The notes below the pieces were generated by a model. It did no database searches. It was not told the origin of the DNA and was given only the letters and a program-made list of their open reading frames with translations. From an uncultured Verrucomicrobiae bacterium (GTDB lineage: Bacteria; Verrucomicrobiota; Verrucomicrobiia; Palsa-1439), in NCBI GenBank assembly GCA_963812605.1, contig CAWEWF010000004.1, forward strand, positions 288,001 to 352,000: 64,000 nucleotides of DNA, in the 5' to 3' direction. Of this stretch, positions 11,828-19,488 are shown piece by piece (within the stretch, counting starts at the first letter, position 1; each line of letters begins with the position of its first letter). The position numbers and the translations under genes were made by a program.

Positions 11828-17166
<5,339 letters not shown>

Positions 17167-17205
17167 TCAGGAGGGATATGAAAACAAGCGACATTTTTCT
17201 CTTTC

Positions 17206-17232
17206 TGTCATTCCGAGCTTGTCGAGGAATCT
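17206..17232 (+). repeat. TGTCATTCC-type palindromic repeat
   Basis: tgtcattccgagcttgtcgaggaatct with attcc/ggaat arms. Confidence 0.5.
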
Positions 17233-17257
17233 CAGTCGTGCCGGGAGGAATGAGAGG

Positions 17258-19488
17258 ATGAAAAGGGGTGCTTCTGTAGCGGCGCTCTATGAGCGCCGAG
17301 GGTTCACGCAATGGATACGGACGGCGGTCATAGACCGCCGCTTGTATCTTGCCCGATATGGTTCCTTATTGTAGCCCCGTAGGGGAACCGACCATGGTGG
17401 ACAAGCCGGGGAAAGGTGAATCTGTGACCGCCGCCAGGCCCACGAGCCTGAGCTGTAGATTCGATCCCTTTCCCCGTGGTCGGCTCAGGCCGAACGGTAT
17501 CGGAGGTCCTCCGAACGCCTTCGGAGTGAACCTGTATGCACAAGCCCGGCCACGCCAACCGATCCGTCCACCGCCCACACTCAACCATAAGGAGACTGCC
17601 ATGACAAGTTATCACCCACTGGGCCTGGACATCGCCAAACGCACCGTCGACGCGGCGTTGTTGCTAGACAAGGGCCGCTATCGCCATCATCAATTCACCA
17701 ATTCGCCGACCGGTTTCACCGCACTGGCCGCTTGGCTGCGCCGACATGCCACCGGCCCCGTTCACGCCGGCTTGGAAGCCACCGGCAGTTATGGCAACGC
17801 GCTGGCGCTATTCCTGCACCAGCAAGGCACGCCTGTGAGCGTCATCAACCCGACGCGGATCCATGCCTTTGCCCAGAGCGAATTGTCGCGTAATAAGACC
17901 GATCCCCTGGATGCCGCGCTCATCGCCCGCTTCGTGGCCACCCAGCAACCGCCACCGTGGACACCCCCACCGCTGGAACAACGCCAACTCCAAAGCCTGG
18001 TGCGTCGGATCGAGGCGCTCCAAGCCATGCGCCAGCAAGAACGCAACCGATTGGATCTGGAAGCCGACGACAGTCTGGTGGCCGATTCCTTGCGCCAGCA
18101 CCTGGCTTATCTGGACGCACAACTGCGCGGCCTCCAACAACGTCTGCGCCAACACCTCCGAGCGCATCCGCCGTTACAACACCAAAACGATCTGTTGCAG
18201 ACCATCCCGGGCATTGGGGAAACCACGGCGCTCAAACTGTTGGCCGAAATGCCCGGTCTGGCCCAGTGGTCCAGCGCCCGGCAAGTCGTGGCCTATGCGG
18301 GACTCAATCCGCAGCAGCGCACCTCGGGCAGTTCGGTGCGCGGGCGCAGCCATCTGAGCAAGATCGGCAATGCACGCCTGCGCCGTGCCCTCTACCTGCC
18401 GGCCGTGGTGGCGATGCGTTACAACCCACTGCTCAAAGCGTTTGCCCAGCGATTACGGGAACGCAACAAACCCCCGATGGTCATCGTCGGCGCCGTCATG
18501 CGCAAACTGTTGCACCAAGCCTATGGCGTCCTCAAACACGCCACCCCTTTCAATCCCAACCACGCAACGACCCATTGACAACCAAGACGGTATCTACAGC
18601 TTCTGCGTGATTGCGATCTTTGGGATCAGTATCCGCTGCTTATCCACCTTTGCCGCCAGCACCGTCACCACCAGCAGCCTTGACGGCGGCGGACTGCACG
18701 CGACCAGCGCTAATTACTCGATGGATAGTAGCGTCGGCGACATCGGCGGGATTTCCAGCGGCGGGAACATCTCGACCCTGCCCGGCTCCGTCGGTCAACT
18801 CACCGAGATCGTCAGTATCAGCGTCACCAGCACACCCTGGCATCGTCAACGAAGACGCGACCAGCCAGCTCAGCGCTACCGCCTCCTTCGATGACAACAG
18901 CGTGTCCATCCTCTCGGGCAGCGACGTTGCATGGGCCAGCGCGGTCTACCCACTGGCCTCGATCGACAGCAACGGCTTGGCAACGGCGGCGTCCGTGTAT
19001 GCCACGACCAATGGCGTATTCAGCGGTTTCTACCTGGGCCTCTCCAGCACCGGCCTCGTGGCCGTGATCGACAGCAATCCCGACAACTACGGCAGCTACG
19101 CCGGCGATGGCATACCGGACAGTTGGCAGGTGCAATATTTCGGCACGAACAATCCCAAAGCCGCGCCGGGCATTGACGCGGATGGCACCGGAAACAGAAC
19201 AATCTCTTCAAGTACACCGCCGGCCTCGACCCAACTAACCCCACCTCAATCTTCGTATTGAAAATCGCCAGCGTCACCGGCCAGCCGACGCAGAAGAACC
19301 TGATCTTCAACCCCATCGCCGGCGGACGGACGTATATCATCGAAGCCAGAACGAATCTGCTCAGCGGCAGTTACGCCGCGCTCGCCAGCGCCAGCGGTCC
19401 GGTCACCAACGTCAACCAGGTCACCGTAACCGATCTAAGCGCCACGCAGACCTCGAAGTTCTACCGCGTCCACGTTTCGCTGCCGTAA
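17258..19488 (+). CDS. Secreted protein with Ig-like region, DGIPDSWQ/DADG calcium-binding-type motifs and C-terminal ...KFYRVHVSLP; interrupted by IS110 no. 2 after codon 28 (probable sequencing frameshifts near 18840 and 19195)
   Basis: ATG 17258 joins 18596 in frame once the IS is removed: MKRGASVAALYERRGFTQWIRTAVIDRRY-SFCVIAIFGISIRCLSTFAAST; downstream fragments 18611-19261 and 19258-19488 continue the protein. Confidence 0.7.
17274..17342. repeat. GTAG-type REP doublet, one member split by IS110 no. 2
   Basis: ctgtagcggcgctctatgagcgccg ... cggcggtcatagaccgccgct|acag. Confidence 0.85.
17357..17560 (+). ncRNA. Putative bridge RNA of IS110 no. 2
   Basis: GACCGCCGC (17426-17434) equals left target; AGCTGTAG (17451-17458) is the reverse complement of core plus right target; ACGGTATC (17494-17501) equals left donor; ACAAG (17540-17544) is complementary to CTTGT; guides lie in internal loops closed by ggggaaagg/cctttcccc, caggc/gcctg and cgtggtcgg/ccggccacg stems. 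Boundaries approximate. Confidence 0.88.
17601..18578 (+). CDS. IS110-family recombinase/transposase (intact, 325 aa)
   Basis: LGLDIAK, LEATGSY, KTDPLDA, TIPGIG, QRTSGSS, SKIGNARLR, AVMRKL; SD aaggag before ATG 17601. Confidence 0.96.
   Translation: MTSYHPLGLDIAKRTVDAALLLDKGRYRHHQFTNSPTGFTALAAWLRRHATGPVHAGLEATGSYGNALALFLHQQGTPVSVINPTRIHAFAQSELSRNKTDPLDAALIARFVATQQPPPWTPPPLEQRQLQSLVRRIEALQAMRQQERNRLDLEADDSLVADSLRQHLAYLDAQLRGLQQRLRQHLRAHPPLQHQNDLLQTIPGIGETTALKLLAEMPGLAQWSSARQVVAYAGLNPQQRTSGSSVRGRSHLSKIGNARLRRALYLPAVVAMRYNPLLKAFAQRLRERNKPPMVIVGAVMRKLLHQAYGVLKHATPFNPNHATTH
18575..18595 (+). promoter_or_regulatory. -35 half of the circle-junction promoter of IS110 no. 2
   Basis: TTGACA (18575-18580) lies exactly 17 nt before TATCTT (17345-17350) once the ends are joined through one CT. 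Confidence 0.75.

Follow-up and report, generated by a model that had tools for sequence, protein, structure and literature searches.

An IS110-family element of a Verrucomicrobiota genome very likely carries a bridge RNA matched to its own REP-like target and its own ends

The founding bridge recombinase is that of IS621 from Escherichia coli (8wt6; PMC11208160, PMC11208158), and a second described system, ISCro4 or IS622 from Citrobacter rodentium (9t56; 10.1101/2025.05.14.653916), is 88% identical to IS621 and was engineered for human cells; earlier work has documented bridge RNAs in thousands of IS110 orthologs and derived guide rules from them (PMC11208160). The present analysis concerns a stretch of 64,000 nucleotides (nt) from an uncultured Verrucomicrobiae bacterium (contig CAWEWF010000004.1), referred to below as the window. 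Positions 17341-18595 of the window very likely constitute a complete element of the IS110 family (IS110 subgroup, IS621/ISCro4-like) with a bridge RNA for its own ends and for its own target, a hairpin resembling a repetitive extragenic palindrome (REP). The label REP-like refers to the repeat and hairpin nature of this target only.

The element and its immediate flanks consist of the following parts, read from the sequence.

17322-17340, + strand: REP-like hairpin CGGCGGTC-ATA-GACCGCCG, also based on the counts of the repeat family
17333-17340, + strand: left target GACCGCCG, the 3' arm of the REP-like hairpin
17341-17342, + strand: CT core, left copy, a boundary common to the paralog B described below
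17343-17600, + strand: left non-coding end, 258 nt, beginning TGTATC and encoding the predicted bridge RNA
17590-17595, + strand: ribosome-binding site AAGGAG, with the ATG 5 nt further
17601-18578, + strand: recombinase gene, 325 amino acids (aa), ATG at 17601 and stop codon at 18576-78
18579-18593, + strand: right non-coding end, 15 nt, holding the left donor ACGGTAT at 18587-93
18594-18595, + strand: CT core, right copy
18596-18601, + strand: right target ACAGCT

As in the IS110 subgroup, the same CT core is found at both junctions, the left end is long (258 nt) and the right end short (15 nt). Elements of the IS1111 subgroup, which are served by seekRNA, rely on a recombinase of the same family and likewise on RNA guidance, with the guide RNA downstream of the recombinase gene. 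Such a guide RNA in a long right end was not found here, where the right end is 15 nt and the covariance-model match reported below lies upstream of the gene. A longer frame starting with TTG (17349-18578, 409 aa) was ruled out as the gene because the homologs begin at ATG 17601, which has the ribosome-binding site.

The 325-aa product matched PF01548 (E 1.2e-28) and PF02371 (E 1.2e-27), both over the curated cut-offs, and has a RuvC-like DEDD domain followed by a Tnp domain with S242-G243. Its residues 4-320 align with the recombinases of IS621 (8wt6, E 1.3e-70, 241.7 bits) and ISCro4 (9t56, E 1.2e-70). In the alignment with 8wt6, residues D10, E59, D101, D104 and S242-G243 stand opposite D11, E60, D102, D105 and S241-G242 of IS621, described as its composite active site (PMC11208158). 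The two Pfam domains and the catalytic D-E-D-D and S-G residues are common to both proteins, and the intact transposase with DEDD motif and SG serine claimed in the original prediction was borne out. The protein is nevertheless distant from IS621 (241.7 bits, no close identity) and equally far from IS622, with which it shares family and architecture, and its host is not an enterobacterium. Among 8,000 scored entries of a protein database, 3,916 relatives were found at E <=1e-40, mostly of 320-326 aa and from environmental assemblies, and none of these carried a name beyond 'transposase'; the nearest named records come from uncultured Verrucomicrobiota assemblies (65-70% protein identity). In 400 other genomes of the phylum, two protein matches reached E <=1e-60, at about 41-42% identity; neither had a left end that could be aligned. 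One of them (L016) was weakly matched by the covariance model (27.6 bits).

The predicted bridge RNA and its parts, all within the left end, are listed below.

17357-17552, + strand: predicted bridge RNA of about 195 nt, the 5' end placed from the -10 box and the 3' end at the end of the basal stem of the donor loop
17360-17389, + strand: 5' stem-loop GGUUCC...GGAACC, predicted by folding only, its sequence not kept outside the clade
17408-17475, + strand: target-binding loop, with basal stem 17408-16/17467-75, upper helix 17420-22/17463-65 and stem-loop 17435-39/17446-50
17408-16 and 17467-75, + strand: strands of the target-loop basal stem, GGGGAAAGG and CCTTTCCCC
17435-39 and 17446-50, + strand: hairpin CAGGC/GCCTG between the two target guides
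17426-17434, + strand: left target guide GACCGCCGC, eight left-target bases plus the first core base
17451-17458, + strand: right target guide AGCTGTAG, reverse complement of CTACAGCT (CT plus ACAGCT)
17459-17460, + strand: target-loop handshake guide AU, complementary to A6 and T7 of the donor, after the model of PMC11208158
17488-92 and 17547-51, + strand: second basal stem GGCCG/CGGCC, the stem of the donor loop
17488-17551, + strand: donor-binding loop, with stem-loop 17504-07/17530-33 and 17509-15/17520-26
17494-17501, + strand: left donor guide ACGGTATC (ACGGUAUC in the donor loop of the RNA)
17536-17544, + strand: right donor guide AT-GC-ACAAG, discontiguous, nine RNA letters pairing with the seven donor letters CTTGTAT
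17545-17546, + strand: donor-loop handshake guide CC, its first C complementary to the target G at -1

All guide strings named in the original prediction (GACCGCCGC, AGCTGTAG, ACGGTATC, ACAAG, the enclosing stem and the hairpin) were confirmed in the sequence at their given places, with one extension, since ACAAG, present at 17540-44, is the end of a longer, discontiguous guide. The order of the parts is that of the published IS621 RNA (compared with PMC11208160 and PMC11208158). Both RNAs lie in the left end, have a target and a donor loop, and run in each loop through stem, guide, stem-loop, guide and a 2-nt handshake guide; both share an identical AU as target-loop handshake, and the discontiguous right donor guide of 9 nt for 7 bp is described for IS621 too (PMC11208160). 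A CT core, a REP-type target, a -35 box in the right end and a -10 box in the left end are likewise common to the two elements. Neither handshake guide here pairs with its own cognate DNA, as in the published model, where the handshake guides are complementary to the non-cognate and not to the cognate DNA (PMC11208158), and the second C of the donor-loop handshake is unpaired, as is U167 of the wild-type IS621 RNA.

Several differences from IS621 were also detected. The donor is ACGGTAT here and ACAGTAT in IS621, with the matching letter in the guide of this element; the IS621 donor ACAGTATCTTGTAT given in the original prediction was confirmed (PMC13396178). The left target guide covers eight bases of the flank and one of the core, the first, position 17435 being C and not U, compared to seven flank and two core bases in IS621. 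The match of the right target guide extends to as many as 8 nt, compared to four in IS621, and takes in eight bases of the element's own flank. The target sequence differs as well, and this element is known from its sequence alone. The 'new target specificity' put forward at the outset is true, but trivially so and nothing beyond, as each natural IS110 lineage has its own guides.

Could such matches arise by chance? The genome has 58% GC and is rich in GC palindromes, conditions under which coincidental agreement between guides and flanks could be suspected. A control with 2,000,000 random 16-nt sites of the genome gave 16 sites for which the left end contains the initial 9 nt as well as the final 8 nt in reverse complement, and the two stood in the right order within 40 nt in only four. 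Because only 4 of 2,000,000 random sites match as well, the guide matches are not due to chance, a reading which is refuted also by the three compensating changes in the paralog and by the concordance across the family, both described next, and to which we assign a negligible probability.

The genome (G000) has one paralog of the element. This copy, B, lies on the minus strand at C8:246885-248137, with 87% nucleotide and 90% protein identity. The alignment of the two shows no difference in the ends, in the donor loop or in the right target guide, whereas the left target guide is AAGCGCGGC in B and GACCGCCGC here, differing at three of nine positions (17426, 17428 and 17432). The left flank changed at the same three positions (AAGCGCGG|CT in B vs. 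GACCGCCG|CT here). The coding sequences are identical at 835 of 978 nt, with a synonymous divergence (dS) of 0.61 and a nonsynonymous to synonymous ratio (dN/dS) of 0.09, and the 147-nt RNA core shows six differences, three of them within the nine guide positions, leaving 135/138 nt identical outside the left target guide. From the dN/dS of 0.09 and the identity of the RNA core it follows that purifying selection has acted on protein and RNA scaffold, even as the guide changed its target. A metagenome contig carries a B-type copy (L018) at a different, guide-matching site whose 8-nt left flank is unchanged.

The targets of both copies are repeated in the 4.17-Mb genome. The 13-mer GACCGCCGCTACA has 12 genome copies against 0.24 expected, and the 14-mer ending in G occurs eight times. 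Sixteen genome sites combine the hairpin with a CT[AT]CA tail, and frequently another hairpin stands in the opposite orientation some tens of bases off; the REP of this element itself has a second, oppositely oriented REP 28 nt upstream. The hairpin at B belongs to a second family, CGCGCTTC-ACA-GAAGCGCG with G-CTACAACC after it, and the reconstructed 16-mer target of B has two further genome occurrences. A comparable arrangement is described for ISPpu10 of Pseudomonas putida (10.64898/2026.03.19.712850), likened here by its description only: immediately 5' of the CT core stands a GC-rich stem-loop whose 3' arm serves as the left target, as here, and the targets are often in convergent pairs.

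As side observations on these repeats, a large hairpin superfamily xxCGCTTC-ACA-GAAGCGxx followed by CTACA gave 68 matches to its core pattern genome-wide, both strands counted (for example C1:89490, C4:20679 and C5:147698), and the CTACA tail is common to the targets of both paralogs. The REP hairpin together with the T-rich start of the left end (17322-17350) also has a terminator-like score of the intrinsic type, a match to consensus only, and this putative site could shield the element from read-through transcription.

The concordance of guides and flanks was then followed across the family. Scans gave four loci in genome contigs and 80 in metagenome contigs; 60 loci, this element and B included, had at least 300 nt upstream and entered the alignment, and 59 remained once L040, with an unalignable left end, was dropped. 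The genome-contig locus L013 was excluded for its truncated left end and degenerate right end. The left target guide agreed with its own 7-nt flank at six or more of the seven positions in 47 of the 59 loci, compared to 7% of pairs with foreign flanks, and the other 12 fell below this level, some of them through problems of alignment register. For the right target guide, all four bases beyond the core matched in 48/59 loci vs. 1.3% of foreign pairs. The loci carry three donor variants (ACAGTAT, ACGGTAT and ACGGTCT), each with a matching guide, and the own 7-nt left donor was contained in the left donor guide in 58/59, so that the covariation of the one-base donor difference (A to G) with its guide, noticed originally from this element, extends through the family. 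The donor-loop handshake base formed a Watson-Crick pair with target base -1 in 49 loci (C:G 22, U:A 15, G:C 12) and a wobble in four more, whereas it was complementary to the locus's own donor in two of the 59. That the guides match the REP target and ends of the element itself is thus borne out by the flanks, the ends, the paralog and the 59 loci.

A close clade is formed by this element, B, L018, L019, L021, L022, L023 and L012. In seven of these eight members the guide equals the own 8-nt left flank, with five flank sequences represented, and seven of eight have C at the equivalent of 17435, where it closes the stem-loop instead; the other clades keep the register of seven plus two. Other copies in the clade, B and L018 among them, thus stand at guide-matching sites, and the exception is L023, whose left flank agrees with its guide at 3/7 positions. 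As an observation apart, the right flank of L023 (181-397 plus flanks) fits its right guide at 7/8, and this locus may be a natural half-matched insertion; a preprint on half-match recombination (10.64898/2026.08.31.748434) is background to the question of which target half dominates.

In a large soil clade of about 35 of the 59 loci (L024, L025, L026, L028 and others) the left junction was observed to be TT or AT and the right junction CT. For the most part the left target guide agrees with the left junction in these loci, the right target guide ends in AG throughout, and the first core position seems flexible or wobble-read.

To describe the RNA structure, six helices with 33 pairs were named on an alignment of 58 left ends, prepared without L040 and L064 and with L047, L067, L091, L094 and L096 entered shortened at their 3' side. 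In this alignment, of the kind proposed as a check in the original prediction, 92.0% of the cells in the 33 pairs form standard pairs, compared to 75.9% after shuffling (0/500 shuffles reached the observed value) and 32-44% when the 3' partners were slid by 1-3 columns. Changes on both sides were found in 27 of the 33 pairs. Helices 1-3, in the target loop, are 81-95% paired with double changes, and helices 4-6, in the donor loop, 89-98% paired. A covariance model was built from 45 of the 58 sequences, with recombinases <=57% identical and with the eight clade members and the five shortened loci left out. It nonetheless matched 17407-17552 at full model length (95.2 bits, E 7.5e-23), the sole match in the window, and in the whole genome it found this element and paralog B only. 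The left-end RNA thus contains a pair of internal loops, both with a closing stem and an inner stem-loop, and by order of parts, covariation and model match its IS621-type architecture is upheld. The same model gave 61 bits on L098, a match on an E. coli plasmid (245.7 bits to 8wt6) that is another family member; the comparison with IS621 itself was made at the level of the protein and of the published RNA. The minimum-free-energy fold of 17343-17600 has a z of -2.4, and a search of 17200-17700 against Rfam 15 at E up to 10 gave three chance-level matches to unrelated families.

In the minimum-free-energy fold, GAAUCU (17418-23) pairs with AGAUUC (17457-62). This pairing, with 6 bp here and 5 bp in paralog B, was not adopted, as it is not kept in the family outside the close clade, the conserved upper helix being 17420-22/17463-65. 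In the free RNA it would mask the handshake guide together with that end of the right target guide which binds the core.

The covariation bears also on the reading in which the left end is a mere 5' leader or regulatory region and the matches are features of the DNA, such as subterminal repeats or target mimicry, read by the protein. Subterminal repeats have been described for the IS110 family in the older literature, and the ends of the RNA are here predicted only, both of which can be counted in its favour. However, DNA recognition does not predict compensatory changes in six helices, the two halves of the guide match opposite strands, one the top and one the bottom, and the handshake position follows the non-cognate DNA. 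In the case of IS621, RNA and protein were necessary and sufficient for recombination in vitro (PMC11208160). We thus regard a DNA-level explanation as very improbable, and favour a left end that encodes a bridge RNA.

How such an RNA would be expressed is suggested by the ends. Two promoter boxes are found on opposite sides of the element.

17345-17350, + strand: -10 box TATCTT of the junction promoter
18575-18580, + strand: -35 box TTGACA of the junction promoter, overlapping the stop codon and kept in 55 of 57 family loci

When right and left end were joined in silico with a single CT core, TTGACA came to lie 17 nt from TATCTT. At the -35 place a TTGAx hexamer is present in those 55 of 57 loci, with a spacer of 17 nt in 50 and of 18 nt in five. 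No sigma-70-like promoter was found in 17200-18700 in the integrated configuration, and the rebuilding of the promoter by excision is a published idea (PMC11208160).

Public read evidence, taken as assembled contigs, gave three DNA runs of one soil study that hold the element. One contig has the left flank of the window and the whole element and then diverges after CTACA; in a second the element is followed by a flank with its first 18 letters equal to a REP site that is unoccupied in the genome (C9:3275), and then diverges; a third shows a different left context. All of the alternative flanks retain the guide-matching letters, and the right flanks begin with CTACA(G/A). These contexts hint at movement, although they are only suggestive. 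No circle junction and no empty site appeared among the assembled contigs of the four runs, which counts neither for nor against mobility. In addition, a 213-nt contig from an RNA library of another soil study covers 17341-17551 with four mismatches and two indels, thus coming from a close relative; it spans the left end alone, and the missing cover over the gene carries no weight. Very probably the element was functional not long ago, and the purifying selection (dN/dS 0.09), the other insertion contexts and the RNA-library contig suggest, indirectly, that it may be active at present.

Several observations speak against this picture. The assembly holds a single copy of this type and eight unoccupied GACCGCCGCTACAG sites. 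The C at 17435, which is U in IS621, leaves the second core base unpaired by the guide, and in IS621 a strong preference for guide pairing with both core bases was reported (PMC11208160). In B and L018 the right target guide fails to match the own flank at the fourth base after the core, and the disagreement between L023 and its left flank is a true mismatch and not one of register. The alternative metagenome flanks come from contigs crossing repeats and are possibly assembly joins, and the RNA support consists of a single contig of a near relative without ends, strand or level, for which DNA carry-over is possible. Finally, the whole window gave no match at the gathering threshold in Rfam 15, which holds no curated model for this RNA.

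Part of these observations would fit an element that is intact but no longer mobile, in which the guides match because no move followed insertion and a subtle defect causes silence, the candidates being the C at 17435, the absence of a promoter when integrated, or substitutions in the recombinase. The single copy despite eight free 14-nt targets, the integrated configuration without a promoter-like site, the second core base unpaired by the guide, and a report that the IS621 bridge RNA is weakly expressed from genomic loci and excision inefficient (PMC13626964) all agree with it. On the other hand, a dN/dS of 0.09 and 135/138 identity of the RNA core at a dS of 0.61 mean long-term selection on protein and RNA, the catalytic residues are all kept, the contigs of one soil study show other flanks beside the same element, and the C at 17435 is found in seven of eight clade members at five different matching targets and is hence compatible with insertion. 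Loss of mobility is accordingly considered unlikely.

By analogy with the work on IS621, we infer RNA-guided recombination, the function of the promoter, the ends of the RNA and current mobility, and a possible sequence of events would be as follows. After excision, the joined ends would create the TTGACA-17 nt-TATCTT promoter driving the RNA, so that the left end would yield the bridge RNA of about 195 nt with its two internal loops. The 325-aa DEDD/Ser recombinase would bind this RNA, the donor loop (ACGGUAUC plus AU..ACAAG) would pair with the ends of the excised circle, joined as ACGGTAT-CT-TGTAT, and strand exchange would take place at the CT core. The AU handshake would then pair with A6/T7 of the donor and the first C with the target G at -1, and the element would be placed at the foot of a REP-like hairpin.

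The window and the genome also contain a second, unrelated element of the IS110 family (window 11876-13084, minus strand), 38% identical in its protein to the recombinase studied here. Four near-identical copies were seen, the one in the window and those at G000 C8:211342 onward, near C10:232987 and near C14:700478; the window copy is broken, lacking 1 nt in its gene and carrying two additional G in its left end. All four copies are located at a hairpin GGCCACG-ACGGAG-CGTGGCC followed by CT, and the left end of this element holds CGTGGCCCT, its own left target guide. The covariance model (R1) matched two intact copies only weakly (15.9 bits). Upstream of the element under study, an 860-aa open frame (window 14584-17166), rich in G/T/N/S repeats and of autotransporter- or adhesin-like composition, stops just before the REP pair.

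Regarding the significance of these results, the element leaves the knowledge of the mechanism unchanged, and any use as a tool is speculative; in this respect, Perry et al. (10.1101/2025.05.14.653916) reported a detectable product in human cells for 18 of 72 tested orthologs, with only one above background in the quantitative assay. It does provide a clean natural example of bridge RNA programming, in which two diverged copies have changed guides and insertion sites together, and an ortholog whose soil host is remote from the enterobacteria of IS621 and IS622 and whose shifted left-guide register could inform guide design. More tentatively, and with the balance leaning against it, the shifted register of the soil clade, a left target invariably formed by the 3' arm of a REP hairpin, and paralogs retargeted between two REP families by the left guide alone may together reflect a different rule of target reading. 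If so, target choice in the clade would be driven by the left guide and the hairpin, with a relaxed right half, as a natural half-reprogrammed design, and this would bear on the specificity rules for bridge editors.

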